Made by a program: the position numbers and the translations under genes. The notes under the pieces were generated by a model. That model saw nothing but the letters and a program-made list of their open reading frames with translations, made no database searches and was not told the DNA's origin. Positions 19,713-64,000 of a stretch of DNA of 64,000 nt are shown here, in pieces (within the stretch, counting starts at the first letter, position 1; every line of letters starts with the position of its first letter). Origin of the DNA: Planctomycetota bacterium (lineage in GTDB: Bacteria > Planctomycetota > J058); assembly GCA_041402045.1 (NCBI GenBank), contig JAWKSZ010000043.1, positions 1 to 64,000 on the forward strand. The letters run 5' to 3'.

Positions 19713-19757
19713 GGCGTTGGACAGCGAGCGGCGCCCCGCGGGGCGCCGTCCTCGAAC

Positions 19758-26117: not shown

Positions 26118-26408
26118 GAACGACCTCGAACTGCAGCATACCGCTTGCCACGGCCCGAGCGTAGTCCTGGTCTCGCGTGGTCTTACGTCCAGGCTTGGGC
26201 TACACTCGAAGCGCACGCACAGCGCGCGGAGGCGCCCCTGACCCAGCCCGAGGGTCCACCTCAGGAGCCCGCCGACGCCAGCTCGGGGCGCGGAGCGATC
26301 AGCTCCAGCGAGACGATCGAGCTGGCCGGCGCCGAGACGACGCCCCCCCGCGGGGGCGGCGACCCCAGCACCGAGACCGGATCCCTCCTGGGCGGGCTGC
26401 GCTCGGGG

Positions 26409-29564: not shown

Positions 29565-29589
29565 GGGACTCGCTCGCGGGACTCTTCTT

Positions 29590-29620
29590 CGTAGGGGCGC
29601 AGCTCGCCTGCGCCCACCCC
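29590..29620. repeat. REP-like palindromic element (GGGCGCAG-N5-CTGCGCCCCTAC)
   Basis: Inverted copy of the element at 29672..29708. A diverged third copy lies at 23981..24006. Confidence 0.5.
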
Positions 29621-29671
29621 ATTCCAGGAAACGACTCCTCCTGGGCAGAGCGTCGGTGCCCCGTCCGTAGC

Positions 29672-29708
29672 GGGGGTGGGATGGGCGCAGGCAAGCTGCG
29701 CCCCTACA
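29672..29708. repeat. REP-like palindromic element (second copy, opposite orientation)
   Basis: gggatgggcgcaggcaagctgcgcccctacag. The pair of copies explains the spurious small ORFs sharing MGWAQASCAPT. Confidence 0.5.
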
Positions 29709-29790
29709 GAGAGACCCCCTGGCGCCTCGTGCATGACCGCTTCGCAGGCGTCGAGCGAGGCCTCGACTCAGCGCGCCTGCGCAGACGAAA

Positions 29791-30525
29791 CTACCCGTTG
29801 GACCCGGCCGATCCGTCAGGCGCGCACCGTTGCCGCACTGGATCGAAGTAACCCAGCGCCCAGGGGGCAACCTCCTCGCGCAAGCTCGAACACGCCTGGG
29901 GCCAACGCTGCCAGACTGCAGCGTATCCAAGGCCGACATGCGCGAGAGTGGGGACGTGAGCGTCCAGCGAGTGGACACACTTGCAGGCGTATTCTGCGAC
30001 CCGTCCAATCGGCGTCTCCGCGAACCCGTCCAGGGGCATGCCGGTCTCTGGGTGATCGCCCCAGGCCGCCTGACGTGCGTCTTCCTCCGCGAACCGCACC
30101 TCCATGAGGTTCATGTCGGTAGGTTCCAACAACCAGGTTTCCACCGTGCTGAGTGCACGCGACACTCGGCGGAACTCGTCGTCCCATTCCTGCGGCGATC
30201 GATCAGCTATCTGAAACCTGGCCACCGCGAGGACGACGCGCACCAGTGCGTCCCTGGGGAATTGCGCGAGCACCCTGCACCCTGCCTCGATCTTGCGTTT
30301 CGCCCCGGGCGGGATCGGGATCGGAAATTCCTCGATCCGGGACAGGTGTGGGCCTCCCTCACTGGCTGCGCGGGCCCCAGGTTCACCCACCCAATACGCT
30401 AGAGCGAACCTGTCTCGTGATAGGTCGCCCAACCTCAAGCGCTCCCGGAGCAGCGCCGCTTCGTCCCTGACCTCGCCGGAGGCTCGCCACCGGCGTTCCA
30501 ACCTCCGCAGCACCTCGTCCGTCAC
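29791..30525 (-). CDS. hypothetical protein
   Basis: 244 aa with natural composition (MTDEVLRRLERRWRASGEV...). No family recognised. Confidence 0.5.
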   Translation of the reverse strand: MTDEVLRRLERRWRASGEVRDEAALLRERLRLGDLSRDRFALAYWVGEPGARAASEGGPHLSRIEEFPIPIPPGAKRKIEAGCRVLAQFPRDALVRVVLAVARFQIADRSPQEWDDEFRRVSRALSTVETWLLEPTDMNLMEVRFAEEDARQAAWGDHPETGMPLDGFAETPIGRVAEYACKCVHSLDAHVPTLAHVGLGYAAVWQRWPQACSSLREEVAPWALGYFDPVRQRCAPDGSAGSNG

Positions 30526-30658
30526 CCAGCGCCTTCCCTCACCGATTGCCTCCGCAATTGCGTCGCCCCGACCGACCGGTAGGGAGGCAACGCACCGTCG
30601 CGCCCCGGCCGCCGCGTGGTGCTCCCGGCCTCGCGCGAACTCGCCTCAGGTATCCCGC

Positions 30659-37717: not shown

Positions 37718-37840
37718 CCGGTCCCCACGCGGCGTCTGGCCCGCCGCAGGCGCCGCGGCAGCGGAGGCTGCCGCGGCAGAAACAGCGTCGGTCGGGGTGC
37801 CCGGCGCAGCCCGACGGGCTACACTCAGGGCTGATCTGAC

Positions 37841-40800
37841 GTGGCAAGTCCTTACGACATAACCTTCCTCCGCTTGCTCATGGATCGCCAGTTGGCTCAA
37901 AAGCCGCAGGCGATGCAGTGCATAGCCGAGATCGACTCGCAGGCCCAGCAAGGGCGCACCGTGTCGGCCGCGCAGCTCGTCGTGCAGTTCGGGCTCGTCG
38001 ACGTCGACCTGGCGCGCGAGGTCGACGCCCTCGCGCGCCAGGAGCTCTCGCGGGCCAACGGCGCCAACGGCTCCGGCGCGCCGCCGCCGCCCCCGCCGCT
38101 CCCCGGCGGGCCGCCCCCGGCGCCCGGCGCGCTCCCGCCCACCCCCGGCGCGCTCCCGCCCATGCCCGGCGGGCTGCCCCCGACCCCCGCTGCGCTCCCG
38201 CCCACCCCGGCGGCGCTGCCCCCACGCCGACGACGCTCCCGCCCACCCCCGGCGCGCTCCCGCCGCCCCCCGCCGCGCTCCCCGGGTCCGCCGCCGTCGC
38301 TGCCTCCGGCGCCGGGCGGACTCCGCCCATGCCGGCGCTGCCGCCGACCCCGCCCCGCGCCCCTGGCGTCCGACGACGGCGGCGGCGACGACGAGGCCTA
38401 CTACGCGCTGGAGGGCTCGCTCTCGGGCTACGAGACCGGCCCCAAGCTCGGCCGCGGCCCGGTGGGGACGAGCTACGCCGGCCGCCGCGCCGACGGCTCA
38501 CCGGTGGTGGTCAAGGCGCTGAGCAAGCGCTTCGCCAAGCACCCCGACGTCGTGCGTCAGGTCGAGGACGACCTCTCGCGCTGGAAGGGCTTCGCGCACC
38601 CGACCGCGGTCAGCGTGTTCGACGTCGGCACGAGCAACGAGCGCACGGTGATCGTCTACAGCCGCGCCCGCGGCGAGAACCTGGCGGACCTGATCGAGGC
38701 CACCGGGCCCCTGGCGCCGACCCTCGCCATGCGCGTGGTCTACGACGTGGCCCTGGCGCTGGCCTCGGCCAAGGAGAAGGTCAACCTCGCCTGCGGCGAC
38801 GTGCGCGCGCAGAAGATCTACTTCGACGGGAAGCGCGCGCAGATCGCCGACCTCGGCCAGTGGCGCGCGTCGTGCCTCGGCAACGGCTTCGGCAAGCACG
38901 GGCTGACCTTCGGGCACCCGGCCTACCTGGCGCCCGAGGTCCTGCAGGAGGGGCAGGCCCAGCCCAACCCGTCGGCCGACGTCTACGCGCTGGGGATCCT
39001 GTTCTACGAGCTCCTGTGCGGGCAGCAGCCCTTCCGCGGCGAGGTCGTGGACGTGCTCAGCCAGCACATGGAGGCCCCGCTCCCGCCGCCCCCGGGGGAG
39101 GTGCGCTTCAGCGCCAAGCTCGCCGCGCTGATCCTGCGCATGACCGCCAAGAGCCCTGCCTCCCGGCTCCCCGACGCCGCGGCGGTGGTCGAGTCGATCA
39201 CCGCGCTGCTCGAGGGCAAGGGGCTCCCGCCGCAGCAGGCCAAGGCCAACGCGGTCACCGCCGACGAGTGGGAGAAGACCCAGGCCCAGAACCGCGCCAC
39301 CGGGCGCTGGAGCCGCTCGCGGATCGACGCCGCGCCGGCGATCGGCCCCTCCGAGCTCGGGCGCGCCATGGACCTCGGCGCCGCGAGCTCGGTCAGCGGC
39401 ATGCTGCCCTCGACGGTCCGGCCCAAGGAGGCCGGGGTCGAGATCTCGCTGGGCAAGAAGATCGGCCGAGGGAGCGCGGGCACCGCCTACGAGGGCACCC
39501 ACACCAAGTTCCCGGGCAAGCTCGCGATCAAGGTGCTCACCAAGCGCTTCGCCCAGCACCAGGACCTGCTGGCGGAGATCAAGGGCGGGCTGCGGCGCGT
39601 GGTCGGGGTCAAGCTCCCGGGGGTCGTGCCGGTCCTCGCGCTCGAGGAGTCCGGCGGCCGCGACCTGGTGGTCTCGCCCCTGATCCCGCATGCCCAGAGC
39701 CTGCGCCAGCGGCTCGAGACCCAGGGCGCGTTCCTGCCCTCGGTCGCCACCGGGTTCATGAAGGCCGTGGTCCAGGCGCTGGCCGCCGCGGACCGCGCCG
39801 GGCTGCACCACGGCGACCTGCGCCCGGACAAGATCCTGGTCGACGGCGAGGGCCAGGCGCACCTCGTGGACTTCGGCCTCGCGCGCGCGTCGTGCTTGGG
39901 CGCGGGCTACGGCAAGGTCGGCCTGCCCTTCGGGCACCCGGAATACCTCGCCCCCGAGGTCGTGCAGGAGTCCCGCAAGCAGCCCTCCCGCGAGTCGGAC
40001 ATGTACTCGCTGGGGATCACCTACTACGAGCTGATCTGCGGGCGCGCGCCGTATCAGAGCCCGGACCTCAAGGAGATCCTGCGCCAGCACCTCGAGGAGC
40101 CGCTGCCGCGCCCGCCGGACGAGGTCAGCCTGCCCGGCGCCGTGGCCAACCTGATCACGGCCCTGACCCACAAGAACCCCGAGGTCCGCCCCGAGACCTG
40201 GGAGGAGGTCCAGCAGGAGCTCGAGAGCTGCCTGGGCCTGGACGGCTCGGCCTTCGACCGCCCCTCGGCGCAGATCGAGGAGTTCGACCCCCTCGCCGAC
40301 GACGACGAGCCCCTGGTCGAGGTGTGGGAGCAGACCTCCGAGATCCTGGCCAAGCCCGCGATCGCCTGGGACAAGTCCAAGATCACCCAGCCCAAGCGCG
40401 TCGGCCCCGACGACCTCGCCGCGGGCACGGTCGACCTCGCCGCGAGCGAGGGCGAGAACCTCGTGGCCGCGGCGATCAAGGCCGCCGCCGCCAGCGAGAA
40501 CCCCGCGACCAGCAGCACCCGCAAGCGCGGCAAGCCCAAGGCCAAGGGCGCTGCGGCGGGCGGCGGCAAGGACGAGGGCGGCGGCAACGGCAAGCAGCTC
40601 GTGCTCGCGCTGGTCGGGCTCCTGGGCGTCGTGGGCGTGATCGCGTTCCTGGCCCTGGGCAGCGGGGACGGCGGCGGCAGCGGCAAGCCCCCCAAGCCCA
40701 ACCCCAACGGCGGCGGCACGGGCGGCGGCGGCACCGGCGGCACCGGCGGCGGGGGCACGGACAAGCCGCCCCCCGAGACCCCCGACGCCTCGAAGTGGGC

Positions 40801-41548
40801 CCAGGTCGCCAAGGACCTCGAGCGCGAGGTCGAGAGCCAGCTCCGCTCGGAGGACTACAAGGACGCCCTCGACGCGCTGAAGGAGGTCTCCTCCGAGGCG
40901 CTCAAGCAGGGCGTCGTCAGCGACGCGGTCAACCGGCTGAAGACCGAGGTCGACGGGCGCTACCGCGACGCGCTGGCCAAGGCCGAGAGCACGCTGCTCG
41001 AGCACGTGCGCCAGGGTCGCGTGCGCGACGCCCACCGCGTCGCCGGCCGCGTCGCCGGCTGGGCGGTGAACCCGGACGACGCCAAGGCGCTCAAGGAGCG
41101 GATCGACCAGGAGCTGCGCACCATGCACGGCGTGGTCGCCGAGCTCGCTCCCCGACGCGCCCCAAGGTCTCGCAGCTCGAGGAGCGCCTGCGCGAGACCC
41201 TCGCCGGCTGGAAGGAGTACGAGTCGAGCTGCCTCGCCTTCGAGGGCGGCGGCGTGGTGGTGCGTTACCCCGACGGCGGCGGCTCGGCCCCCGACGACTG
41301 GGAGGTGCTCCAGGGCGAGGCCCCCAAGCTCGACACGCTGCCCAGCGGCGGGCGCGGGCTGCGCCTGTTCGCCGCGGCGGAGCCCACGATCCTGCGCTTC
41401 AAGCTCCCGTTCAGGAAGCTGGTCGACGTGCGCCTCAAGTTCGTGCTCGGCGCCGAGGCCAAGCCGGGCTCGCGGTTCACCGTGGTGCCCCTGCTCGAGG
41501 ACCCCGGCGACAAGGGCGGCGGCCTCGACTGGGGCCTCTACGCCATGA
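37841..41548 (+). CDS. membrane-anchored tandem kinase-like protein: two degenerate Ser/Thr kinase domains, proline-rich repeat linker, TM helix, Gly-rich segment
   Basis: Domain 1 lacks HRD and DFG (CGDVRAQKIYF and DLG). Domain 2 has HHGDLRPDKILV and DFG. A frame change near 41153 lets the extracytoplasmic C-terminal domain continue to 41829. Confidence 0.75.
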   Translation: MASPYDITFLRLLMDRQLAQKPQAMQCIAEIDSQAQQGRTVSAAQLVVQFGLVDVDLAREVDALARQELSRANGANGSGAPPPPPPLPGGPPPAPGALPPTPGALPPMPGGLPPTPAALPPTPAALPPRRRRSRPPPARSRRPPPRSPGPPPSLPPAPGGLRPCRRCRRPRPAPLASDDGGGDDEAYYALEGSLSGYETGPKLGRGPVGTSYAGRRADGSPVVVKALSKRFAKHPDVVRQVEDDLSRWKGFAHPTAVSVFDVGTSNERTVIVYSRARGENLADLIEATGPLAPTLAMRVVYDVALALASAKEKVNLACGDVRAQKIYFDGKRAQIADLGQWRASCLGNGFGKHGLTFGHPAYLAPEVLQEGQAQPNPSADVYALGILFYELLCGQQPFRGEVVDVLSQHMEAPLPPPPGEVRFSAKLAALILRMTAKSPASRLPDAAAVVESITALLEGKGLPPQQAKANAVTADEWEKTQAQNRATGRWSRSRIDAAPAIGPSELGRAMDLGAASSVSGMLPSTVRPKEAGVEISLGKKIGRGSAGTAYEGTHTKFPGKLAIKVLTKRFAQHQDLLAEIKGGLRRVVGVKLPGVVPVLALEESGGRDLVVSPLIPHAQSLRQRLETQGAFLPSVATGFMKAVVQALAAADRAGLHHGDLRPDKILVDGEGQAHLVDFGLARASCLGAGYGKVGLPFGHPEYLAPEVVQESRKQPSRESDMYSLGITYYELICGRAPYQSPDLKEILRQHLEEPLPRPPDEVSLPGAVANLITALTHKNPEVRPETWEEVQQELESCLGLDGSAFDRPSAQIEEFDPLADDDEPLVEVWEQTSEILAKPAIAWDKSKITQPKRVGPDDLAAGTVDLAASEGENLVAAAIKAAAASENPATSSTRKRGKPKAKGAAAGGGKDEGGGNGKQLVLALVGLLGVVGVIAFLALGSGDGGGSGKPPKPNPNGGGTGGGGTGGTGGGGTDKPPPETPDASKWAQVAKDLEREVESQLRSEDYKDALDALKEVSSEALKQGVVSDAVNRLKTEVDGRYRDALAKAESTLLEHVRQGRVRDAHRVAGRVAGWAVNPDDAKALKERIDQELRTMHGVVAELAPRRAPRSRSSRSACARPSPAGRSTSRAASPSRAAAWWCVTPTAAARPPTTGRCSRARPPSSTRCPAAGAGCACSPRRSPRSCASSSRSGSWSTCASSSCSAPRPSRARGSPWCPCSRTPATRAAASTGASTP

Positions 41549-52539: not shown

Positions 52540-55242
52540 GTGACCAAGCGCAAGCTGCGTCCTAGCCAGGACGTCTACCATCGGATTCGCTGGGACCCGC
52601 GGCTCGAGCCCACGGAGTTCGAGGTCGTGCACCGCGAGCGCTCGGGGCGCTTCGAGGCCACGCCCCTGGTGGAGTTCGTCCCCGGCGGGCGGATCCCCTG
52701 GTCCCGGGTCTACCGCGTGCGCCGCCGCGACGGGTTGGTGGTGTGGGACCGCGAGGCGCGGCGCGACCTGTTGTTTGGCTCCGGCGACACCGCCCCCGAG
52801 GAGCGCCTCGAGCCCACCCGCGGCGCCGAGCCCGACGACGGGTTCCTCGTGCCCCTGGTCCCCTGGCGCCACGGCGCCGAGGGCTGGCGCGAGGACCGCG
52901 CCCCCGCCGCGCCGCTCCCGCGCCGCCCGCTCTCGGTCCTCAGCTACAACGTGCTGTTCGAGCGCTTCCGCGCCGAGCACCTGCGCACCGCCGAGCGGCG
53001 CCCGGCCCAGCTCGCGCTCCTGGGCGCGCAGCAGGCGGACCTGATCGCGCTGCAGGAGGTCACGCCGCCCTACCTCGAGGCGCTCCTCGCCGAGCCCTGG
53101 GTCCAGCGCGACTACTGGGTCAGCGCCGGGCCCGGGAGCGAGGTCGTGGAGCCCAACGGCCAGGTCCTGCTCTCGCGGGTGGCCCCCGCGCGGCTCGGAC
53201 TCCACGCCTACAGCGGGCGCAAGCACGTGCTGGTGGCCCGCTTCGCCGACGGCGTCGGCGGGCTGTGGGTCGCGGTGGTGCACCTCACGAGCAACATGAC
53301 CCCCAACGCCCCCGAGGTCCGGGTGGGTCAGCTCGCGGCGCTGCGCGGGTTCCTCGAGCGCAACGCGCGGGAGGCGACCTGGCTCGTCGTCGGGGACTTC
53401 AACCAGCGCGAGGGGGAGCCCCTGGGTGGGCTCGTCGAGGCCGGGGCGCTGGACCTCTGGCCCGCGCTGCACCCGGGCGACCCGGGCTACACCTTCGACC
53501 CCGGCGCCAACGCCCTCGCCGCCGAGCTCAGCAGCAGCCCGCACCCGGTGCGCTACGACCGCGTGCTCCTGCGCGCGACCGCCGACCGCTGGCGCGGCGC
53601 GGCCCTCGAGCGCTTCGCCTGCGACCCGGTCCCCGGGGTCGAGCCGCCGCTGTTCCTCTCGGACCACTTCGGCCTGACCCTCGAGCTGCGCCCGGGGGAC
53701 GGGAGCCAGGGTCAGCCGGTGCACACCAGCGCGCTGGCGGTGGTCCCCCCGCCGGGGGCCTGGCCCGCGCTCCAGGCCCTGCGCCGGGCGCACGACCCGC
53801 GGCACCGGCGCTGGCCCCCGCACGTGAGCGTGCTCTACGGGTTCGTGGCCGCCCCGCACCTGGAGGCGGCCACGAGCGCCGCGCGCGAGGCGCTGCGCGG
53901 GCACGCGCCGTTTCGCCTGAGCCTCGACGGCCTCGAGCGCTTCGCCCACCGCCGCCGCGCGTCGGTGTGGCTGCGCCCCGAGCCCGCCGAGCCCCTGCGC
54001 GCGCTGGAGGCCGACCTCCTGCGCGCGTTCCCCGCCTGCAGCGAGCAGCGCCACAAGGGGACCGCGGGCTACACCCCGCACCTGACCGTGGCCCAGGTCT
54101 CCCTCGCCGAGACCCCGAGCTTCCTGAGCGAGGTCGGGCGCGGCTGGACCCCGCTCGCGTTCGAGGTCGACGCGCTGTGCGCGCTGACCCGGGAGCAGGG
54201 CACGGGCTTCGACCTCCAGGCCGCGATCCCTCTGGGGGCCCCGCGCTCGCTGGAGCAGGCGACCGCGGCCTCGGGCCTCCTGGGGGAAGGCCCGCCCCCG
54301 GGGCTGGAGGCCCTGCGCCGGGCGAGCCCGCTCGAGCTCGCGGTGTTCGGCTCCTGGGCCCTGGACGCGGCGCTTACCTCCAGCGACCTCGACCTGGGCG
54401 CGACCCTCGGTCCCGGCCAGGAGCCCCTGGCCTACTACGAGCTGGTCGCGGAGAGCCTCGAGCGCGCGGGCAGCCTCCGCGAGCGGCGCGTCGTCCCCGG
54501 CGAGCTCCCGCTCCTGCGGCTGGAGCTCGAGGGCGGCGCCAAGGTCGACCTCCTGGCGAGCGTCGGCGCCCCGCCGCCCCAGGCGGGGGTCCCCGCCTTG
54601 CTGCGGACGGCGGCGGGCGCGCGCTGGGAGCTGGCCCGCGCGACCCTGCGCGCGCTCCGCGCCTGGGCCTCGGCCCGGCAGCTCGACGCCCAGGCCCTGG
54701 GCGGCCTCGGCGGCGTGGCCTGGGCGGCGCTGGCGGTCGAGGCGACGCGCGGCGCCGCGAGCGCTCCCGAGGCGCTGGAGGCGAGCCTCGCCGCCCTGGC
54801 CCAGGACGGCGCCGACGCCGTGCGCGCGGCCAGCGCGCGGCTCGCGATCCCGGGGGAGCCGACCAAGGGGCTCACGCCCTCGACCCGCGCGCTCCTCGCC
54901 CGCGAGGCGCGCCGCGCCCTGGGGTTGGCTCAGGCCGCGCGCCGCGGCGAGGGGGCCTGGAGCGGGCTGTTCTACCCGGCGCCGCTCCCGCCGGAGCCGG
55001 TGGTGTGGATCGAGCCTGCGCGCGAGGGACCCGGGGTCGAGGGCGCGCTCCTGGGGATCGCCCAGCGCGTGATCGCGGCGCTGGAAGAGAGCGGGGCCAC
55101 GGTGCGGCCCTGCCCGCAGCGCGAGCCGCGGGGCTGGGCCTTCGGGGTCGACGTGCTGGGGCCGAGCCAGGCCCGGGCCGTCGAGCGCGCGCTGCGCCCG
55201 GCGCGCGAGCTGCGCGCGGCCTTCGAGCCCGAGCCCGACTGA
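52540..55242 (+). CDS. multidomain RNA-repair-like enzyme: N-terminal DUF504/MJ1316-type cyclic-end recognition domain, EEP (endonuclease/exonuclease/phosphatase) domain, 2H/LigT-like phosphoesterase (HVSV...HLTV), C-terminal polymerase-beta-type nucleotidyltransferase (GSW...DLDL)
   Basis: DVYHRIRWD...RIPWSRVYRV. EEP motifs LSYNVL, LQEV and SDHFGL. Two H-x-S/T-x motifs. GS-x(n)-D-x-D motif. 900 aa. Confidence 0.75.
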   Translation: MTKRKLRPSQDVYHRIRWDPRLEPTEFEVVHRERSGRFEATPLVEFVPGGRIPWSRVYRVRRRDGLVVWDREARRDLLFGSGDTAPEERLEPTRGAEPDDGFLVPLVPWRHGAEGWREDRAPAAPLPRRPLSVLSYNVLFERFRAEHLRTAERRPAQLALLGAQQADLIALQEVTPPYLEALLAEPWVQRDYWVSAGPGSEVVEPNGQVLLSRVAPARLGLHAYSGRKHVLVARFADGVGGLWVAVVHLTSNMTPNAPEVRVGQLAALRGFLERNAREATWLVVGDFNQREGEPLGGLVEAGALDLWPALHPGDPGYTFDPGANALAAELSSSPHPVRYDRVLLRATADRWRGAALERFACDPVPGVEPPLFLSDHFGLTLELRPGDGSQGQPVHTSALAVVPPPGAWPALQALRRAHDPRHRRWPPHVSVLYGFVAAPHLEAATSAAREALRGHAPFRLSLDGLERFAHRRRASVWLRPEPAEPLRALEADLLRAFPACSEQRHKGTAGYTPHLTVAQVSLAETPSFLSEVGRGWTPLAFEVDALCALTREQGTGFDLQAAIPLGAPRSLEQATAASGLLGEGPPPGLEALRRASPLELAVFGSWALDAALTSSDLDLGATLGPGQEPLAYYELVAESLERAGSLRERRVVPGELPLLRLELEGGAKVDLLASVGAPPPQAGVPALLRTAAGARWELARATLRALRAWASARQLDAQALGGLGGVAWAALAVEATRGAASAPEALEASLAALAQDGADAVRAASARLAIPGEPTKGLTPSTRALLAREARRALGLAQAARRGEGAWSGLFYPAPLPPEPVVWIEPAREGPGVEGALLGIAQRVIAALEESGATVRPCPQREPRGWAFGVDVLGPSQARAVERALRPARELRAAFEPEPD

Positions 55243-55307
55243 ACGGAGCTCCGCGACGCTGCGGGATCGCGCGAGCCGGGGCTGGGAAGACGCGGCCCGC
55301 TTCCGTT

Positions 55308-55425
55308 GAAGCGAAGCCTCTCCTAGGAGCCGGAGTCACGATCCTGAGCGGGCGAGGGACCTCCGGCGCGGCGACGACCGTCCACGACCCTCGCCCGCTC
55401 AGGATCGTGAACTCCGGCTCTTAGC
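55308..55425. repeat. about 115-bp structured repeat: conserved 5' flank (aagcgaagcctctNctag) plus long imperfect hairpin (about 28-bp arms); copy 1
   Basis: Arms ccggagtcacgatcctgagcgggcgaggg / ccctcgcccgctcaggatcgtgaactccgg. Second copy at 61958..62074 with compensatory changes. Both copies lie between convergent gene ends. Confidence 0.6.
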
Positions 55426-55780
55426 GGCCGGTCGGGGGCCCGGTGAACTCGATCACGTCGGCGGTGATGATCACCGAGTCGCCGCTCACGATCCCTACGT
55501 TGTAGCTGGAGACGTCCTCGGAGACGTTGATCAGCGCCCGGGGCCGGTCGTCGAGCTCGGCCAGGATCCGGACCTTCTCCAGCGCCTTGGCGTACTGGGC
55601 GTTGATCCCGATCCCGAACACCTTGAACCCGGAGTCCGAGCCGCGCACGCCGGTCTGGATCACGCGGTAGTTGTTCGAGGTCAAGGTCACGTTGGTGACG
55701 TTGTTGCCGCGAAAGGCGCCGTCGGAGGTGCAGGCGCTGAGGGCGCAGCAGGCGGCGAGGACGAGGAGACGCACGTTCAT
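55421..55780 (-). CDS. small lipoprotein (hypothetical)
   Basis: Start MNVRLLVLAACCALSAC with GGAG RBS. Lower-GC region. Confidence 0.55.
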   Translation of the reverse strand: MNVRLLVLAACCALSACTSDGAFRGNNVTNVTLTSNNYRVIQTGVRGSDSGFKVFGIGINAQYAKALEKVRILAELDDRPRALINVSEDVSSYNVGIVSGDSVIITADVIEFTGPPTGR

Positions 55781-55836
55781 GGATCGCTCCGTGCCGGGCA
55801 GGGGCGGGGAGTTGGGTGGGTTGGAAGGAAGCAGGA

Positions 55837-56532
55837 TTACTCGGCGACCAGGCGCTTGCGCAGGTCCGGGATCAGGCTCTCGGTCTCCTGGAAGATCCGG
55901 GGGTATTCGATCTGCTCGCCGTTGTCGTCGAGGATCGACTTGATCTGGACCTTGTAGATCAGCGGGTTGCGCGAGGTGATCGAGCAGAAGAACTGGTTGG
56001 TCAGCGCGACGGTCTTGGTCGGGCCGCGGCGCAGGGACTTGGTCTTGCTCTTGCTCGCGATGTACCCGGCCTGGTTGTCCTGGTTGTCCAGCTCGGGGTA
56101 GTAGCGGGTGAGGGTGTCGATCAGGACGTCCCACACCTGGTCCTCGTCCATGTCGCTGTTGACCTCGAGCTCGAGCCAGGTGTTCGAGGCGTCCGAGGGC
56201 ACGGTGTGGGTCCACACCTCGTCCTCGTGGAGCTTGATCTCAATGAACTCCTTGCCGTCCTCGACCCCGTTGCGCTCGCTGAAGGCGTCGATCGTGAGCT
56301 GGTGCACGAGCTTGGTGGAGCGGACGTAGCCCTCCTTCGTCGCCGCGACCTTGTAGCGGGTCTCGGGGTCGGCGAAGTCGAAGCCGTAGAGCACGGGCGA
56401 CACGCCGATCGGCTTGTCGTCGACCGAGATCTCGGCGCCCTCCTCGGGCACGGTGCGGATCTCGACCTGGCGCACGGTCTCGCAGCCGCAGAGCAGGGTC
56501 AGGGCGAGGGTCAGGGCAACGGTACGGGTCAT
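55837..56532 (-). CDS. lipoprotein (hypothetical)
   Basis: Start MTRTVALTLALTLLCGC with AGGAGG RBS 6 nt upstream. Lower-GC region. Confidence 0.6.
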   Translation of the reverse strand: MTRTVALTLALTLLCGCETVRQVEIRTVPEEGAEISVDDKPIGVSPVLYGFDFADPETRYKVAATKEGYVRSTKLVHQLTIDAFSERNGVEDGKEFIEIKLHEDEVWTHTVPSDASNTWLELEVNSDMDEDQVWDVLIDTLTRYYPELDNQDNQAGYIASKSKTKSLRRGPTKTVALTNQFFCSITSRNPLIYKVQIKSILDDNGEQIEYPRIFQETESLIPDLRKRLVAE

Positions 56533-56633
56533 GCCGGCCTCCTGGGATCGAGCGGCGCACGGTAGCACGGGAGCCCAGGGGCTGCGAGCGCTCTCCTAGA
56601 GGGCTGCAGTGCAACGGAGGCCCGGCAGGCCCG

Positions 56634-59600
56634 CTACTCGGGCAGCTCGAGGAGCACGCGGAAGCCGACGTCGTCGTAGCCCTTGATCGTGCGCCCGCGG
56701 CGCGAGGTCGCCCGCGTGTCCTGGAGCGGGGTGCAGAAGCTGCCCCCGCGGTAGATCCCGGCGCTGCCCGAGGCCTCGAAGGGGTCCGTGAGCTCGGTGG
56801 TGCTGTCGAGGGGGTAGGCGGTGAAGCCGTCGCGCACCCACTCCGCCGCGTTCCCGATCGTGTCGTAGAGCCCGAAGGGGTTGGGCGCGACGCCCTCGCG
56901 CCCGACCGCGGCGAGGAGCGTGGCCCCGTCGCTGCAGCCGAAGTACTCCTGCCCGCGGCCCTGGAGCTTGGGGGCGTAGGCCTCGACGTAGTCGTCGTCC
57001 TTGACGTTGGCGCGGTCCCGCGCCCCGGCGACGGACTTGCCCCAGAACCACGGACCCCGCGTGCCCGCGCGGCAGGCGTACTCCCACTCGGCCTCGGTGG
57101 GCAGGCGCAGGCGCCCGGCGAGGCCGGCCGCCTCCCCGAGCTTCGCGCAGAAGCTCGAGGCATCGATCCGGGTGACGCCCACCGCGGGCCAGGCGGGGTC
57201 CTCGAGGCTGAGGGTCGGCGGCTCGGCGAGCCCGGCGCGCCCCTCGTGGGGGGTGAACTCGGGGGCGGTGTAGGCGCCCATGACCGCCGCGTACTGCGCC
57301 TGGCTGACCTCCCACGCGCTGAGGTAGAAGCCGCGGGTCAGGCGCACGAGGTGCGGCCGCGCGTCGTCGTCCCGCGCGCGGAAGAAGGGGTCGTCCTCGG
57401 GGTTGGAGCCGCGGGAGTAGACCCCCGGCGGGATCAGCACGAACTCGATCCCCTCGACGGTCTTCGTCAGCGGCTGGTTGTGATCCTTGGCGAAGCTCTC
57501 CTGCGCCGGGGTCACCGTCCACCAGGCGCCCTCGAGGACCTTGGGGGCCTTGCGGGTGACCTGGGCCTCGCCGCGGCCCTCGTTGCCCACGTCGTCGGTG
57601 GCCGCGACGGCGAAGGTGTAGGTCCCTTCGGAGTCGATCTTGATCCCCTTCCACACCCACACGCTGCCCACCCGCTGCGGGGGGCCCTGCTGCACGGTCC
57701 CGGCCCCGCGCTTCTCCAGGGTCACGGCGCTCGGCGGCTGGGCCTCGCCGGAGATCCGCACCTGGACGTCCACCTGGGTGATCGCCTCGGGGTCGCCCTC
57801 GGGCCAGGCGGTGGGCACGACCTCGACCTCGACGGTCGGCGGGGTCGCGTCGCGCACCGCGACCAGCTCCAGGCGCGTCTCGTTGCCCACCTCGTCGCGG
57901 GCCACCACCGCCGCGGTGTGCTCGCCCTCGCTGCCGAGGGCCCAGCTCCCGCGGAACACGCCGTCGGCCGCGGCCTCGAGGGCCACCCCGTCGAGGGTCA
58001 CCCCCGCCAGGTCGTGGTCCTGGGCGCGGACCTCGACCGGCACGGCCGCGTCGCGGGTGCGCAGGGGCGCGCCGTCGGGGGACTGGGGCGGGAGCCGGAG
58101 CTGGAGCGTCGGCGGCTGGCGCAGGAGCTCCTCGCGCTCGGCCGCGAGCCGCTTCTGCTCTTCCTCGCTCTCCGTCTCCTGGTCCTTGACCACCTGCTCG
58201 CGGTCGCGGAGCTCGGCCTGCTGGCGCTCGAGCTCGCGCTGGTGCCGCGCGCGGCTGAAGAAGGCCAGCGCCCCGTAGGTCACCCCCGCGAACACCAGCA
58301 CCAAGGTCAGCGCCGTGAGCGCCGCGGGCTTGGGGTTGCGCCGCACCCAGCGCCGGAGCTGCTCCAGCGCGCTCGGGCGCTGGGCCACGATCTTCGTGCT
58401 GGCCTGGTAGCGGCGCAGGTCCTCCGCCAGGGTCTCCATGCTCGGGTAGCGGTGGCCGACCTCCTTCTCCAGGCAGTGGAGCACGATCGTCTCCAGGTCC
58501 TCGGGCACCTCCGCGCGCTGGCGGCGCAGCGTGGGCGGGCTCTTGGAGAGCACCTGGTGGATCACCGCGCCCACGGTCTTGCCTACGAAGGGCGGGCGCC
58601 CGACGAGCGCGTAGTAGAGGGTCGCCCCCGCGCCGTAGACGTCGGCGCGGGCGTCGACCGGCGCGGCCATGCCCGCCTGCTCCGGCGGCATGTAGCCCGG
58701 GGTGCCCAGCAGGGTGAAGCCCTGGGTCAGCCCCTGGCTCGGGTCCTCCTCGAGCAGCTTGGCCAGGCCGAAGTCGGTGAGGCGCACCGTGCCTTCGCGG
58801 TCGAGCATGACGTTGTGCGGCTTGACGTCGCGGTGCAGCACGTTCTGCGCGTGGGCGTAGCCCAGGGCGTCCGCCAGCGCCGCGCCGATCTCGGCGGCGC
58901 GCGCCGGGGGCAGCGGGCCTTCGCGCTCGACGAGGTCGTGGAGGGTCTCGCCCTCGACGAGCTCCATGGCCATGTACCACAGCTGGCTGCGCTCGTCCTG
59001 CTCGAGGTCGAGCACGCTCACCAGGTTCTTGTGGCTCAAGCGTCCGGCGGCGCGGCCCTCGACCAGGAAGCGCTGGACCCCGGTCTCGGCGCCCGGGGGC
59101 GCGCGCAGGACCTTGAGCGCGACCTTGCGGTCGGTGCGCAGGTGCACGGCCTCGTAGACCGCGCCCATGCCGCCGGCGCCCAGGGCCTTGAGCAGGCGGT
59201 AGGGCCCCAGGCGCGAGGGGATCGCCGAGCCCGGCTTGCCGCGGGGGATCGTGGCCTGGCTCTGCTGGAGCTGGCTGCCCTGGCTGGCCTGGGTCGGCGG
59301 GTCGACCTGGGTGTCGCCAGGGCCGGCCGACGCCGGCCCTTCGCGGGTGTGTTCGGCCCGGGTCTGCTCGTCGCCGCCGTGGCTCGACGCCGCGGGGGGC
59401 GGCGGCGGGGTCAGCCCGGGGTGCGCCCCGGTGTGGGAGCCCGTCTGCGAGCCGTGCTGCCAGCCGGGTTGGGAGTGGAACCCGCCCACCCGCGAGTCGA
59501 AGGCGTTGGGGTGCGCGGCCACGTTCGAGTCCGAGAGCGTGCGCGCCGCGCGCACGTCGCCCCCGTCGCTGAAGGTCGAGTCGGGGCCCTCGCTGAAGTC

Positions 59601-60080
59601 GGGGAGCGCGATCGGCCCCGACTGGTTGAGCGTGCTCTCCAGGTCCGAGGGCGCCCCGGCCAGGGTCCGCGCGTCGCGGTCGAAGGCCGCCAGCGGCGGC
59701 TCGTCGTCCTGAGGCGGCGGGCTGTAGAGCGTGGGCGCGTTGGGGTCGAGGGGCTGGTCCAGGGCGCTGGGGCGAGCGCCGACCCCCGGCGGGAGCGGGG
59801 CCTCGGCGAAGGTCATGGCGCCCCGGTCCACCGACGGCGGCGCGGGCGCGGCCTCGGCGAAGGTCATGGCGTCCCGGTCCACCGACGGCGGCGGCGGCGC
59901 GGCCTCGGCGAAGGTCATGGCGTCCCGGTCCACCGACGGCGGCGGCGGCGCGGCCTCGGCGAAGGTCATGGCGTCCCGGTCCACCGGCGGCGGCGGCGGC
60001 GCGGGGGGCGGCGGGTCCGGGTGCAGGGGCTGACCCGAGGGGTCGAAGGGCTGCTCGTCGTCGGGAGGGGTGCCGCTCAC
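56634..60080 (-). CDS. Ser/Thr protein kinase with N-terminal PPPPSVDRDAMTFAEAA x4 repeats, TM helix, Ig-like region and C-terminal FGE-sulfatase domain
   Basis: Kinase motifs GAGGMGAVYEA, HRDVKPHNVML and DFGLAK. C-terminal RLPTEAEWEYACRAG...GNAAEWV...RGGSF. 1,148 aa. Confidence 0.8.
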   Translation of the reverse strand: MSGTPPDDEQPFDPSGQPLHPDPPPPAPPPPPVDRDAMTFAEAAPPPPSVDRDAMTFAEAAPPPPSVDRDAMTFAEAAPAPPSVDRGAMTFAEAPLPPGVGARPSALDQPLDPNAPTLYSPPPQDDEPPLAAFDRDARTLAGAPSDLESTLNQSGPIALPDFSEGPDSTFSDGGDVRAARTLSDSNVAAHPNAFDSRVGGFHSQPGWQHGSQTGSHTGAHPGLTPPPPPAASSHGGDEQTRAEHTREGPASAGPGDTQVDPPTQASQGSQLQQSQATIPRGKPGSAIPSRLGPYRLLKALGAGGMGAVYEAVHLRTDRKVALKVLRAPPGAETGVQRFLVEGRAAGRLSHKNLVSVLDLEQDERSQLWYMAMELVEGETLHDLVEREGPLPPARAAEIGAALADALGYAHAQNVLHRDVKPHNVMLDREGTVRLTDFGLAKLLEEDPSQGLTQGFTLLGTPGYMPPEQAGMAAPVDARADVYGAGATLYYALVGRPPFVGKTVGAVIHQVLSKSPPTLRRQRAEVPEDLETIVLHCLEKEVGHRYPSMETLAEDLRRYQASTKIVAQRPSALEQLRRWVRRNPKPAALTALTLVLVFAGVTYGALAFFSRARHQRELERQQAELRDREQVVKDQETESEEEQKRLAAEREELLRQPPTLQLRLPPQSPDGAPLRTRDAAVPVEVRAQDHDLAGVTLDGVALEAAADGVFRGSWALGSEGEHTAAVVARDEVGNETRLELVAVRDATPPTVEVEVVPTAWPEGDPEAITQVDVQVRISGEAQPPSAVTLEKRGAGTVQQGPPQRVGSVWVWKGIKIDSEGTYTFAVAATDDVGNEGRGEAQVTRKAPKVLEGAWWTVTPAQESFAKDHNQPLTKTVEGIEFVLIPPGVYSRGSNPEDDPFFRARDDDARPHLVRLTRGFYLSAWEVSQAQYAAVMGAYTAPEFTPHEGRAGLAEPPTLSLEDPAWPAVGVTRIDASSFCAKLGEAAGLAGRLRLPTEAEWEYACRAGTRGPWFWGKSVAGARDRANVKDDDYVEAYAPKLQGRGQEYFGCSDGATLLAAVGREGVAPNPFGLYDTIGNAAEWVRDGFTAYPLDSTTELTDPFEASGSAGIYRGGSFCTPLQDTRATSRRGRTIKGYDDVGFRVLLELPE

Positions 60081-60120
60081 GCTGGCGAGTGTAGCGCGTA
60101 GGCGGGGGCTTGTCGGCCTC

Positions 60121-61233
60121 TTACGCCTCCCCTGCGGGCTTCGAGGGTGCGTTGGGGTCGGTGACGCTCCCCTCGGCCCGAGGCGCGTTGAGCTGGGTCG
60201 GCGGCGCCGGGCGCTTGGGCCGGAGCCCGAGGAACACCAGGCTCAAGATCCGCGAGCGCAGGAGCGCCTTCTCGATCACGAGCGGGACCCCGAGCCCGAA
60301 GCCGAGGGACAGGAAGAACAGCCCGAGCCCGGCCTCCAGCCCCAGGACCTTCTTGGCCACGATCCTCGAGCCGGCGGTGCCGAACACGTGGAACAGGTAG
60401 ATCCCGTAGGAGTAGAAGCCGAGCCGCGCGAGCCAGGGGGTCTCCCAGCGGATCCGGAACAGGATCAGGCACCCGGTGAGCCCCACCAGCATGCCCAGGG
60501 CGGCGCCGCGGTATTCGGTGTCCATGCGCTCGAGCAGCGGGAGCGGCCAGCCGTACCACGACCCCTGCTGCCACACCAGCCCGAGGAGCAGGATCGCCGC
60601 CGCGGGCAGGACCACGGCCGGCCCGCGCAGCAGCGCCTCGAAGCGCCCGAGACCGACGCCGAGCAGGAAGAACGGGAGCAGGTAGAGGAACGCGGGGAAG
60701 GAGAAGAACGCGGTGACCGGGAACGGCGGGCTCCAGCGGATCAAAGCGGCGACGAGGAGCACGCCGGCCCAGCGCGCGGGGGTCTTCAGGGCCTGCACCC
60801 GCTCGAGGGCGGTCACCGTGAGGAACACGAGGAAGATCGCCTGCAAGAACCAGAAGTGGTCGAAGGAGAACAGGTAGATCCGCCAGATCTGCGAGAGCTC
60901 GACGCGGGCGTTGGTCCCGGGCACGGCCCAGCGCATGAGGAACTCGAGGGTCGCGACCGCCGCCATGGGCAGCAGGATCCGCCGCGCCTTGCCCCGCAGG
61001 AAGCCCAGGCTCTTGCCCGCGGCGACCGGGCGCAGGGTGTAGACGAACCCCGAGATCACGGTGAACAGGGGCATGCGGAAGAACTGCAGCGAGTAGTAGA
61101 AGTGGCGGAACTCGGAGTCCGCGGCGACCTTCATGCCGTTGGTCGCTTTGTCCCCGATCACGTGCCCGGCGACCATGAGAATGATCGCGAGCCCGCGCAG
61201 GGTCTCGATCGACTGATCCTTCCGCTTCGGCAC
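60121..61233 (-). CDS. acyltransferase family 3 (OpgC/OatA-like) membrane protein
   Basis: LRGLAIILMVAGHV N-terminal motif and about 10 TM helices. GTG start. Confidence 0.8.
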   Translation of the reverse strand: MPKRKDQSIETLRGLAIILMVAGHVIGDKATNGMKVAADSEFRHFYYSLQFFRMPLFTVISGFVYTLRPVAAGKSLGFLRGKARRILLPMAAVATLEFLMRWAVPGTNARVELSQIWRIYLFSFDHFWFLQAIFLVFLTVTALERVQALKTPARWAGVLLVAALIRWSPPFPVTAFFSFPAFLYLLPFFLLGVGLGRFEALLRGPAVVLPAAAILLLGLVWQQGSWYGWPLPLLERMDTEYRGAALGMLVGLTGCLILFRIRWETPWLARLGFYSYGIYLFHVFGTAGSRIVAKKVLGLEAGLGLFFLSLGFGLGVPLVIEKALLRSRILSLVFLGLRPKRPAPPTQLNAPRAEGSVTDPNAPSKPAGEA

Positions 61234-61391
61234 GGCGCGGAGGATACCCAGCCTGTGCAGCGACGTCTCGCCTCGGGTGACGCCCGTGGGGCGCGCCCGG
61301 GTAAACCGCTTCCCGCGCGAACGCTAACTCCTTGTGTCGGATCTCGGCCCGGGGCGTGCACTGCGTCCGCCCGCGGGGAAGGAGGCGAGGC

Positions 61392-61817
61392 ATGTCGAGC
61401 AAGAAGCGGTTGGCGCTGTTCCTGGCGGTGTTCGTGGGCGGGGCGCTGTGGTTCGGGCTCCCCTTCGCCCGGGCCCTGCGCTACCGCAACGACTGCCAGC
61501 TCCTGGTGGACGAGGTCGCCCGAGACCCCGTCCCCGAGGGGCTGTTCGCGCTCCCCGAGCGCGCTCGCGCCCTGGCGCCGGCGGCGGGGATCGACCCCGC
61601 GGTCGTCCGCCTCGAGGTCGGCCTGCGGCGCCTGGGCCTGCCCGAGGCGCCCCGCTACCGCGTGGAGCTGAACATGGTCCACGGCCCCTGGGACGACCGC
61701 GTGGTCGCGGGGATCGACGGCCAGCGCGTCGACTTGGACTACCTGGAGGCGCTGGTCGAGGGCGGCGTGGAGCTGCGCGGCATGGCGGAGGAGTCCGCCG
61801 AGCTCGAGGCCCGCTAA
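61392..61817 (+). CDS. hypothetical membrane-anchored protein
   Basis: Start MSSKKRLALFLAVFVGG with GGAGG RBS. Internal part of ORF 61332..61817. Confidence 0.5.
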   Translation: MSSKKRLALFLAVFVGGALWFGLPFARALRYRNDCQLLVDEVARDPVPEGLFALPERARALAPAAGIDPAVVRLEVGLRRLGLPEAPRYRVELNMVHGPWDDRVVAGIDGQRVDLDYLEALVEGGVELRGMAEESAELEAR

Positions 61818-61957
61818 ACGGAAGTGCGCGATTCTGAGTGGTCAGCACTGAGACCACGTGCTGACCCTCCACCGAATCGCGCCTTCCGTGTAGCTACTGG
61901 AAGCTCTGCCTGGGCGCTAGCGTTCGGGAGACTCGGCGCTGCAGGACACGTCACGGC

Positions 61958-62074
61958 CAAGCGAAGCCTCTACTAGAAACCAGAGTCACGATCCTGAGCG
62001 GGCGAGCGAGCGCCAGATCGCTGACGACATGGGAGCCACTCTCGCCCGCTCAGAATCGTGAACTCTGGTTTAGC
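61958..62074. repeat. structured hairpin repeat, copy 2 (arms ccagagtcacgatcctgagcgggcgag / ctcgcccgctcagaatcgtgaactctgg)
   Basis: Same element as 55308..55425. Base changes between copies preserve pairing (ccgg/ccgg versus ccag/ctgg). Sits between convergent gene ends. Confidence 0.6.
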
Positions 62075-62079
62075 AGCTG

Positions 62080-62613
62080 TTAGACGAGCGCCGAGAGCGT
62101 GGTCAAGGACTCGAAGCGGTAGCCCGCCTCCTCGATCCGCTCGCGGCCGCCGGCCTCGCGATCGACCATGCACCACACCCCGAGCACCGTCGCCTGCTCG
62201 GCGACGCGCTCGGCGGCCTTGAGCACCGAGCCGCCGGAGGTGACCACGTCCTCGACCAGGACCACGCGGTCGTCGGCGCCGAGGCTCGCGCCCTCGATCG
62301 CCTTGCCCAGCCCGTGCCCCTTGGGGGTCGGGCGCACGTAGACGAGCTTGAGGGGCACGCCGTCCTGGGCGGCGAGCACCCCGGTGGCGGACACCAGCGG
62401 GCAGGCGCCGGTGACCGGCCCCGCGAGGCAGGTCGCGCCCCAGCGCTGGGCCATGGCCAGGATCTCGCGCCCGAGGAGCAAGGACCCCAGCGGGTCCAGG
62501 CTCACCTTGCGCCCGTCGACGTAGACGGTGCTGGTGCCGCCGGAGGCGAGCTGGATCGGGGGGCCGTGCGCCACGCTCCGGCGCAAGTGCTGAAGGAGTT
62601 CGCTGTCGCTCAT
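62080..62613 (-). CDS. pyrE: orotate phosphoribosyltransferase
   Basis: PRTase motif VVLVEDVVTSGGS. 177 aa, the short OPRTase type. Confidence 0.85.
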   Translation of the reverse strand: MSDSELLQHLRRSVAHGPPIQLASGGTSTVYVDGRKVSLDPLGSLLLGREILAMAQRWGATCLAGPVTGACPLVSATGVLAAQDGVPLKLVYVRPTPKGHGLGKAIEGASLGADDRVVLVEDVVTSGGSVLKAAERVAEQATVLGVWCMVDREAGGRERIEEAGYRFESLTTLSALV

Positions 62614-62671
62614 GGCGCGATCTTACGCGCTGGCGGGCGAGGGGTAGAATTCCCCCGAAGGGGAGGTCCGG

Positions 62672-64000
62672 GTGGCCGCGCTCCAGACACGGGACAGCGA
62701 GCTCGTCGAGCTCGGCGGGGTGTGGGTCGCGCGCAGCGTCCCCGGGCTCTACCAGCGCTGGGTGCGCGAGCACGCCCACGAGCCGGTGGTCTACCGCCGC
62801 GCCGCCGGCGCCTGGCACGGGATCACCGCGCTGGCCCAGGCGGAGCAGGTCGAGCGCCTCGCTCGGGGCCTGATCGCCCTCGAGGTGGCCCCCGGCGACC
62901 GGGTGGGGATCCTGGCCGAGACGTCGGCCGAGTGGGCGGTGGCGGACCAGGCAATCCTGCACGTGGGCGGGGTGACGGTCGGGGTCTACCCCACGCTCCT
63001 CGGGCCGCAGGTGGCCTACCAGCTCGACCACGCCCAGGTGCGCGTGCTGTTCGTCTCCGACGTGGCGCAGCTGACCAAGGTCCGCGCGATCCGCGAGCAG
63101 GTCCCGAGCCTGGAGCGGATCGTGCTCTTCACCCCGGGGGTCGGGCAGCAGAGCGCGCCGAGCGACGCCCTGGACCTCGCCGCCCTCGAGGCGCTGGGCG
63201 CCAGCGTGTCCCCCGACGAGGTCGAGGCGCGCTGGCGCGCCCTGGGCCCCGACGACCTCGCGACCCTGATCTACACCTCGGGCACCACCGGGCAGCCCAA
63301 GGGCGCGGAGCTGACCCACGGCAACCTGACCTTCACCGCGGTGGCGGCGGCGACCGCGCACCCGCCCGGCGTCGACGAGCGCACCGTGGTGTTCCTGCCC
63401 CTGGCCCACGTGCTCCAGCGCTGGATCTGCTACGCCGCGCTGACCCGCGGCGCGGTGCAGTACTTCGCGGCCTCGCACCACACGATCATGGACGACCTGC
63501 GCACCGCCGAGCCGAACTTCCAGGTCTCGGTCCCGCGGATCTGGGAGAAGGTCCACGCGCGGATCCTCGAGCGCCTGGGCCAGGCGCCCAAGCACCGCCA
63601 GCGGCTGTTCGCCTGGGCGCTGGGGGTCGGGCGGCGCGCGATCCCCTACCGCGAGCGCCAGGCCACGCTCCCGCTGCGCCTGCGGCTCGAGGCCGCGGTC
63701 GCCTCGCGGGTGGTGTGGAGCCCGCTCAAGGCGCGGCTGTTCGGCACGCGCCTGCAGTACCTCAGCTCGGGGGGCGCGCCGATCGGGCGCGCGCTGCTCG
63801 AGTTCTTCCTGTCCCTCGACGTGTTGATCCTCGAGGGCTGGGGCCTGACCGAGACCTCGGCCCCGGCCACGATCAACCGCCCGCTGGCCTTCCGCCTGGG
63901 CAGCGTGGGCCAGCCCTTGCCCGGGGTCGAGATCAAGGTCGCCCCCGACGGCGAGCTCTGCGTGCGCGGCCCCGGCGTGTTCCGCGGCTACCACCTCGAC
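62672..64000 (+). CDS. AMP-dependent synthetase/ligase (long-chain fatty-acid-CoA ligase-like), 3' partial at the window end
   Basis: Not in the ORF track because there is no stop before the window end. GTG start with GGGGAGG RBS. AMP-binding motif IYTSGTTGQPKG. Confidence 0.8.
   Translation, partial: MAALQTRDSELVELGGVWVARSVPGLYQRWVREHAHEPVVYRRAAGAWHGITALAQAEQVERLARGLIALEVAPGDRVGILAETSAEWAVADQAILHVGGVTVGVYPTLLGPQVAYQLDHAQVRVLFVSDVAQLTKVRAIREQVPSLERIVLFTPGVGQQSAPSDALDLAALEALGASVSPDEVEARWRALGPDDLATLIYTSGTTGQPKGAELTHGNLTFTAVAAATAHPPGVDERTVVFLPLAHVLQRWICYAALTRGAVQYFAASHHTIMDDLRTAEPNFQVSVPRIWEKVHARILERLGQAPKHRQRLFAWALGVGRRAIPYRERQATLPLRLRLEAAVASRVVWSPLKARLFGTRLQYLSSGGAPIGRALLEFFLSLDVLILEGWGLTETSAPATINRPLAFRLGSVGQPLPGVEIKVAPDGELCVRGPGVFRGYHLD

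Follow-up and report, generated by a model that had tools for sequence, protein, structure and literature searches.

REPINs are doublets of repetitive extragenic palindromic (REP) sequences that form hairpins and are mobilised by RAYT tyrosine transposases (Bertels & Rainey 2011, PMC3116915). Their ends are conserved and their spacer, although fixed in length, is less so; compensatory changes are common, and the presumed intermediate bears an asymmetric 5' tail (PMC3116915). In E. coli, REPs serve as combined terminators and stabilisers in 3' untranslated regions (UTRs) and are present between convergent genes (bioRxiv 10.64898/2026.03.23.713779), and the Correia elements are bound by RNase III (PMC2649163). 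Here, we describe a hairpin-forming repeat that occurs twice in a 64-kb stretch of a Planctomycetota metagenome-assembled genome (MAG), i.e., positions 1 to 64,000 of contig JAWKSZ010000043.1 in assembly GCA_041402045.1, which is referred to as the window throughout. In our estimation, there is about an even chance that this repeat is a low-copy, non-autonomous palindromic intergenic repeat like the REPINs or the miniature inverted-repeat transposable elements (MITEs) of the Correia and enterobacterial repetitive intergenic consensus (ERIC) type, which probably also acts as a 3'-end hairpin for its flanking genes. None of the libraries searched contains this sequence family, but elements of this kind are known.

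Structure and Conservation of the Two Copies

A first-pass annotation of the window had reported two copies of about 115 bp that share a 5' flank and a long hairpin with preserved pairing. Both copies are present as placed and in direct orientation, and local alignment refines their limits to 55309-55428 and 61959-62077 (approximately 120 nt each; Table 1). Each copy opens with an 18-nt flank (AAGCGAAGCCTCTNCTAG), which is followed by a 5' arm made up of an outer part of 10 nt and an inner part of 20 nt (CACGATCCTGAGCGGGCGAG). A centre of 33 or 34 nt separates this arm from its complement, in which one bulged A lies between the inner and the outer part, and a short tail that reads (TT)AGCRGC closes the copy. 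In the window, the 20-mer of the inner arm is found four times (in both arms of both copies) compared to 0.05 times expected, while the flank occurs twice, both times at a repeat copy, compared to 0.08 expected. The tail of copy 1 should be read with care: the same DUF6567 gene that follows it ends in GGCCGC-TGA in a related MAG, so the GGCCGC behind copy 1 belongs to the gene and need not be part of the repeat.

Table 1. Segments of the two repeat copies, in coordinates of the window.
Feature	Position	Strand	Observation
Copy 1, 5' flank AAGCGAAGCCTCTCCTAG, single-stranded	55309..55326	+	17/18 identical to copy 2
Copy 1, outer 5' arm GAGCCGGAGT	55327..55336	+	Partner 55411-55420; 3 positions unlike copy 2, partner changed at each
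Copy 1, inner 5' arm CACGATCCTGAGCGGGCGAG(GG)	55337..55358	+	Exact 20-mer common to copy 2; perfect 23-nt inverted repeat
Copy 1, variable centre	55359..55387	+	33 nt if counted from 55357 to 55389; identity to copy 2 centre at shuffle level
Copy 1, 3' arm, bulged A at 55410	55388..55420	+	Fold with 5' arm -88.4 kcal/mol, z = -8.1
Copy 1, 3' flank TTAGCGGC	55421..55428	+	Includes the TAA stop codon (55421-55423) of the DUF6567 gene on the minus strand
Copy 2, 5' flank AAGCGAAGCCTCTACTAG, conserved	61959..61976	+	Motif search and identity to copy 1
Copy 2, 5' arm: outer AAACCAGAGT, then inner CACGATCCTGAGCGGGCGAG	61977..62006	+	20-mer match, alignment, pair analysis
Copy 2, variable centre, 34 nt	62007..62040	+	Shuffle comparison
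Copy 2, 3' arm, bulged A at 62061, single uncompensated change at 62054	62041..62071	+	
Copy 2, 3' flank AGCAGC	62072..62077	+	pyrE stop codon next, 62080-62082

Conservation is spread unevenly over these segments. The two copies are identical at 17/18 positions of the 5' flank, in line with its earlier description as shared, at 39/40 positions of the inner arms, at 14/20 positions of the outer arms (7/10 in the outer 10 bp of each arm) and at 18/34 positions of the centre. The identity of the centres is no better than that of optimally aligned shuffles (mean 18.9); the loops had correctly been said to differ completely, and their lengths are nearly equal. The contrast between the flank plus inner arms (56/58 identical) and the centre is pronounced (Fisher p = 6e-7), and because of the 56 identical positions the two copies are, judged by their alignment, of common ancestry. 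The segment-wise identities likewise indicate that the inner stem and the unpaired flank are constrained in primary sequence, the outer stem in its pairing alone and the centre in its length alone (33 versus 34 nt). Neither centre has a significant match or complementarity elsewhere in the window. The 7-mer GCGAAGC in the flank, known as a 'mini-hairpin' motif, is about as frequent in the window as expected by chance (30 versus 26 occurrences) and was given no weight.

Both copies are predicted to fold into long hairpins. On either strand, their RNA folds reach z = -6.8 to -8.5 relative to shuffles, and their DNA folds z = -7.8 and -8.9; no shuffle folded as well as the repeat copies. For copy 2, the RNA fold amounts to -65.7 kcal/mol on the plus strand and -79.1 kcal/mol on the minus strand. 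Single arms alone fold no better than shuffles (z = +0.7 to +2.4). The stem counts 30 pairs, of which 26 are invariant, three are changed on both sides and one is broken in copy 2 (61993 C opposite 62054 A). The bulged A is conserved (55410 in copy 1, 62061 in copy 2), and the arms of 30 bp plus bulge can be extended to 33-37 bp; terminal inverted repeats are thus present. All three double changes, at alignment columns 22/116, 24/114 and 27/111, lie in the outer stem and are exchanges between G:C and A:T, with G:C in copy 1 and A:U in the RNA of copy 2. Hence, the preserved pairing of the earlier annotation holds in full for the changed outer pairs. By our own estimate, three independent changes per 10-nt outer arm have a chance of 1/120 or less of coinciding at the same three pairs, and the shuffle control on compensatory changes (62/500) has almost no power with only two sequences. 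The changes had also been read as an indication of selection on the structure. They are real and fit selection on the hairpin, but they do not prove it by themselves, because arm-to-arm correction within a DNA palindrome would give the same pattern; with n = 2, the two are inseparable.

A stable structure with conserved pairing, together with centres that are unrelated in sequence and equal in length, would also suit a small-RNA gene or cis-antisense RNA family with its own transcription, in which flank and stem form the functional RNA and the centre a target-specific segment. We consider this decidedly improbable. A search of Rfam at a permissive E-value yielded only a meaningless 25-bit match to MIR839, a plant microRNA hairpin model (gathering score 200, E = 0.16), so no Rfam family matches; no sigma-70-like promoter or terminator was found for the repeat; and the centres have no significant complementarity elsewhere in the window, as described above. 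The evidence from wobble pairs is split. Two single-side transitions give G.U wobble on opposite strands, at the foot of copy 1 on the plus strand and at position 62054 of copy 2 on the minus strand. With one such G.U/A.C position favouring each strand, the strand of any functional RNA cannot be inferred.

Position at Convergent Gene Ends

Each copy had been placed between two convergent genes, and this holds for both, at two unlinked junctions. Copy 1 is located between the plus-strand gene 52540-55242 (900 aa) and the minus-strand gene of a DUF6567 lipoprotein (55421-55780; protein identical to NCBI MEZ6187396.1), whose TAA stop codon abuts the stem. Copy 2 is located between a plus-strand gene for 141 aa (61392-61817) and pyrE (62080-62613, minus strand). 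Exact look-ups of PyrE and of the 900-aa protein, with the gene limits adopted here, returned no record. Relative to the minus-strand genes, the stems begin 0-8 nt past the stop codon (0 at DUF6567, 8 at pyrE), and the upstream genes on the plus strand end 66 nt (copy 1) and 140 nt (copy 2) from the repeat.

Such a position invites the reading as a bidirectional terminator, which the first-pass annotation had offered as one of two options. The canonical features are lacking, though. No U-tract follows the stem on either strand (the tails read CUUAGCGG and UUAGCAGC on the plus strand and CUAGNAGAGGCUUCGCUU on the minus strand), a consensus scan of 54800-62700 returned 0 terminator-like sites and no sigma-70-like promoters, and stems of 33-37 bp are far longer than usual. 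Bidirectional termination is therefore plausible as a secondary role only. A broader version of this reading is a dedicated, non-mobile regulatory hairpin, either a bidirectional factor-independent terminator or a 3'-end stabiliser, of which the two copies arose by rare local duplication or gene conversion. Apart from the position shortly behind stop codons and the pairing kept by double changes, it is favoured by the fact that every other strong long hairpin of the window (24261-24315, 29586-29712 and 61813-61894) also lies at a gene 3' end. On the other hand, besides the atypical stem length and the missing terminator signals, a purely structural role leaves unexplained why the inner arms and an unpaired 18-nt flank are conserved nearly perfectly while the centre is randomised, and a related genome manages both junctions with spacers of 7 and 19 nt and no hairpin. 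On balance, we regard a dedicated regulatory hairpin as a tentative and rather unlikely explanation.

Presence and Absence in Related Genomes

The nearest different genome is MAG GCA_020425635.1, with PyrE and DUF6567 proteins that are 85% and 89% identical, respectively, to those of the window. Both junctions are syntenic in this relative, and the orthology of the flanking genes was confirmed, yet the convergent genes nearly touch and the element is absent. The DUF6567 gene is separated by a spacer of 19 nt from the orthologue of the 900-aa gene, and pyrE by one of 7 nt from that of the 141-aa gene. In another relative (locus L069), a different gene follows pyrE and the element is absent there as well. 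In contrast, three metagenome contigs of the same species (L074, L075 and L076) carry an identical copy 1, and a fourth (L071) shows the start of copy 2 directly after pyrE, as far as the contig reaches. That L071 ends inside an arm was considered as a sign of a repeat and rejected, as the arms have fewer than 31 identical bases in common and both ends of the contig are short.

Because both junctions are syntenic but empty in the relative, gain is the most economical reading, and the same element was probably gained at two separate loci in the lineage of the window, as far as can be judged from the compared sequences. The second option of the first-pass annotation, a mobile REP- or MITE-like element, gains support from this. 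Regarding a target-site duplication, TA is present at both stem feet (cTAg...tTAg), but the conserved 18-nt flank lies outside of it. We also considered whether the arms derive from the target, given a resemblance of the outer stem GAGCCGG to TGAGCCGG behind the stop codon in the relative. This was rejected, as the match is too short to be told from chance in such GC-rich DNA.

The first-pass annotation had further remarked that GC content is lower next to copy 1. The drop is real (0.62-0.67 in 55430-56530 compared to 0.72 in the window), while a link to the element does not hold. The two lipoprotein genes in this region (55421-56532) have a GC content of 0.65-0.66, and their counterparts in the related MAG (L077, 3315-4420), where the repeat is absent, are equally low at 0.645 and 0.667. 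The low GC content is thus a property of these lipoprotein genes, unrelated to the repeat and no sign of recent transfer. Direct copies 6.65 kb apart with lower GC content beside copy 1 could otherwise have suggested direct repeats of the attL/attR type, or the ends of a composite transposon, that bound a 6.5-kb island with low-GC lipoprotein genes. We rejected this idea as extremely improbable on the grounds of synteny and the shared low GC content. The genes between the copies encode a 1148-aa kinase, an acyltransferase and lipoproteins and are syntenic with the relative, which shares the gene order (kinase-FGE, 231-aa lipoprotein, DUF6567 and RNA-repair gene; pyrE beside the 141-aa gene) without the repeats. 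The intervening stretch of 6.5 kb is therefore ancestral and not an island, and it contains no integrase or transposase.

Searches for Further Copies

A covariance model built from the two copies was applied, with its filters off, to the window and to nine loci from relatives, a check that the first-pass annotation had proposed. It recovered no third copy in the window and no copy in the nine loci; besides the two copies, only sequence-unrelated long hairpins were scored, at 20-26 bits. An exact scan for an 18-mer of the arm in the GTDB species representatives (185,579 genomes, one per species) gave 62 loci, all of them chance matches to a single arm with no complementary arm within 150 nt. 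In the JGI metagenome contigs, a hairpin-pattern scan produced a sole match (L072), which is an unrelated hairpin with 12-nt arms. IMG/VR gave one chance match inside a gene and none for the flank-plus-arm pattern, and blastn against plasmids and phages gave nothing relevant. Finally, a six-frame pseudo-protein of the element had no match at E <= 10 among 5.8 billion proteins. The literature searched yielded no REPIN/MITE-like palindromic repeat in this Planctomycetota lineage.

Origin and Possible Function

If the repeat is indeed a REPIN- or MITE-like element, it may have been copied into both sites, probably in the form of a single-stranded hairpin for which a recognition protein is encoded elsewhere in the genome. 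Such a protein would recognise the inner stem, which is invariant, together with the bulged base and the 5' flank of 18 nt; of the outer stem it would require no more than pairing, and of the centre no more than length. We propose that the copies persist at convergent 3' ends because no promoter is harmed by an insertion there. The stem of 33-37 bp would then be co-transcribed in the 3' UTR of the flanking genes, where, by analogy with the REPs of E. coli and the Correia elements of Neisseria, it would most likely act as a readthrough barrier and a block to 3'-exonucleases, or as a substrate of RNase III.

Several observations weigh against this interpretation. Among the Pfam-scanned open reading frames (ORFs) of the window, no transposase, RAYT or integrase was found, nor a Y1 transposase domain. 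The outermost arm bases, which a classical transposase would require to be conserved, are the least conserved part of the arms, and the arms have no fold of their own, unlike REPs. Only two copies of the element are known, both from one 64-kb window, and it has no real match in the 185,579 species-representative genomes, the JGI metagenomes or IMG/VR. Moreover, the relative may have lost the element independently, instead of the window's lineage having gained it, and the spacer sequences of the relatives have diverged too far for the insertion boundaries to be placed, so that no target-site duplication can be defined.

Two further explanations involve recognition by a protein. One possibility, to which we attach a slim chance, is that the repeat is a substrate of an undescribed hairpin-recognising mobilisation system in an uncultured Planctomycetota lineage. 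Inner stem, bulged base and single-stranded flank would again be recognised by a protein encoded elsewhere, and the centre, with its fixed length and unrelated sequences, would be a variable or acquired segment rather than simply decayed. The other is a DNA site read by a protein, either as an attC-like single-stranded recombination site or as a double-stranded binding site with the inner arms of 20-23 bp as half-sites. The sequence-specific conservation of inner arms, bulge and flank, in combination with an outer stem that needs pairing alone, would agree with such a site, and the element folds well as DNA. Yet the attC core sites RYYYAAC and GTTRRRY are absent from copy 1, the window holds no integrase, recombinase or cassette array, the 6.5 kb between the copies represents ancestral synteny rather than cassettes, and the half-sites would be spaced approximately 56 bp centre to centre, which is unusual for operators. 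Taken together, this makes a protein-read site quite improbable. An identity as attC itself was rejected on its core sites, since the stem base reads GAGCC...GGCTC in copy 1 and AAACC...GGTTT followed by AGC in copy 2, which misfits GTTRRRY.

Returning to the REPIN/MITE-like interpretation, its significance depends on copy number. If the repeat belongs to a dispersed family, it would provide an example of this kind in a poorly sampled Planctomycetota lineage with a GC content of roughly 72-75%. Its unusually clear constraint pattern points to a specific protein reader that is worth seeking. The element also marks two recent changes in 3' UTRs (of pyrE and of the lipoprotein gene), which could alter expression compared to sister lineages. 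Should there be no copies beyond these two, it would be no more than a minor curiosity.

Other Hairpins and Genes of the Window

The window is ordinary chromosomal DNA with a GC content of 72% that carries, among others, rpsD, pyrE, a purF-like gene and several Ser/Thr kinase genes. Several further hairpins were observed in it. The intergenic region of copy 2 contains a second strong hairpin (61813-61894, z = -9.5), which is unrelated in sequence to the repeat. It starts at the stop codon of the 141-aa gene and is absent at the pyrE junction of the relative (locus L063, 7-nt spacer). A perfect 26-bp palindrome with a 3-nt loop is located at 24261-24315 and preceded by two short GC-rich hairpins; its 3' arm holds the stop codon (24291-24293) and the last codons of a minus-strand Ser/Thr kinase gene. 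At 29586-29712, a hairpin with 36-nt arms that are 89% complementary and a 55-nt centre is found downstream of a gene of the ABC_ATPase family that ends at 29564. In the approximately 0.9 kb after this hairpin (29737-30650), there is no ORF with the high third-position GC content that is typical of local genes. Three successive GC-rich hairpins of 9-13 bp are located at 19640-19750, between rpsD and a convergent gene of the epimerase family. They look more like conventional terminator-type structures than the long hairpins do.

With respect to coding content, the 900-aa protein upstream of copy 1 fuses an MJ1316 domain for cyclic-RNA-end recognition, an endonuclease/exonuclease/phosphatase domain and a 2H (2'-5' RNA ligase) domain, and also contains a weak poly(A)-polymerase-like region. 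By its domain architecture, it looks like an RNA-repair enzyme. A 1704-aa protein with DUF3686, DUF7902 and an AAA ATPase domain is encoded at 4651-9765 and followed by a 759-aa protein without a Pfam match (9807-12086). Ser/Thr kinases fused to FGE-sulfatase domains are encoded at 12842-15043 and 56634-60080, and three more kinase genes are located at 24291-, 26400-27833 and 37835-41548; these kinase regions explain several of the long repeats of the window. Tandem repeats at 59787-60041, 38059-38294 and 23564-23756 have periods of 51, 21 and 27 nt, respectively. As they lie inside ORFs and their periods are all multiples of three, they probably encode peptide repeats.

Comparison with Known Systems

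The repeat is not established as a member of REP/REPIN, classical MITE, intrinsic terminator or attC, as it lacks at least one defining feature of each. Like integron attC sites, it is an imperfect palindrome whose centre varies, has an extrahelical base and directly follows a gene. In contrast, it has a single bulged base only, copy 1 is devoid of both core sites, no integrase or cassette array accompanies it and the intervening genes are ancestral. An intrinsic terminator would likewise be a GC-rich hairpin shortly past stop codons and between convergent genes, and compensatory evolution of terminator stems has been documented (PMC5381666). Here, however, a U-tract is missing on both strands, the stem is three to five times the usual length, and primary sequence and an unpaired flank are conserved across unrelated loci.

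The likeness is greater for the Correia elements of Neisseria and the ERIC elements or intergenic repeat units (IRU) of enterobacteria. These are also 100-150 nt long, have long terminal inverted repeats, vary in presence between related genomes and form co-transcribed hairpins that affect the fate of the mRNA. The TA at both stem feet of our repeat (cTAg...tTAg) is reminiscent of a TA target duplication. The differences concern the arms, the flank and the centre. The outermost 10 bp are here the least conserved part of the arm (7/10), and where one arm of a copy differs, so does its other arm. A conserved flank of 18 nt borders the inverted repeat on just one side, and the centres of the two copies are unrelated, in contrast to the conserved core of Correia elements. 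No parent insertion sequence is known.

REPINs differ from the repeat in other respects. The conserved segments are here not short palindromes themselves, and the most conserved part adjoins the centre while the outer stem varies. REPs have a GTAG-type head, a term that the REPIN paper itself does not use, and the stem feet here read CTAG and TTAG. Two copies are known here, compared to tens to hundreds in the extragenic space of one genome, and the host is a Planctomycetota MAG. No RAYT, usually a single-copy gene with the repeats at its sides, was seen in the window. Nevertheless, the repeat shares with REPINs the overall format of an intergenic element of approximately 100 nt, in which a spacer of fixed length and poor conservation separates two conserved inverted segments, and a predicted long hairpin in single-stranded DNA or RNA, as well as compensatory changes, an asymmetric single-stranded 5' tail and no obvious target duplication. 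Of the systems compared, REPINs provide the closest description of the element, followed by the Correia and ERIC-type MITEs.

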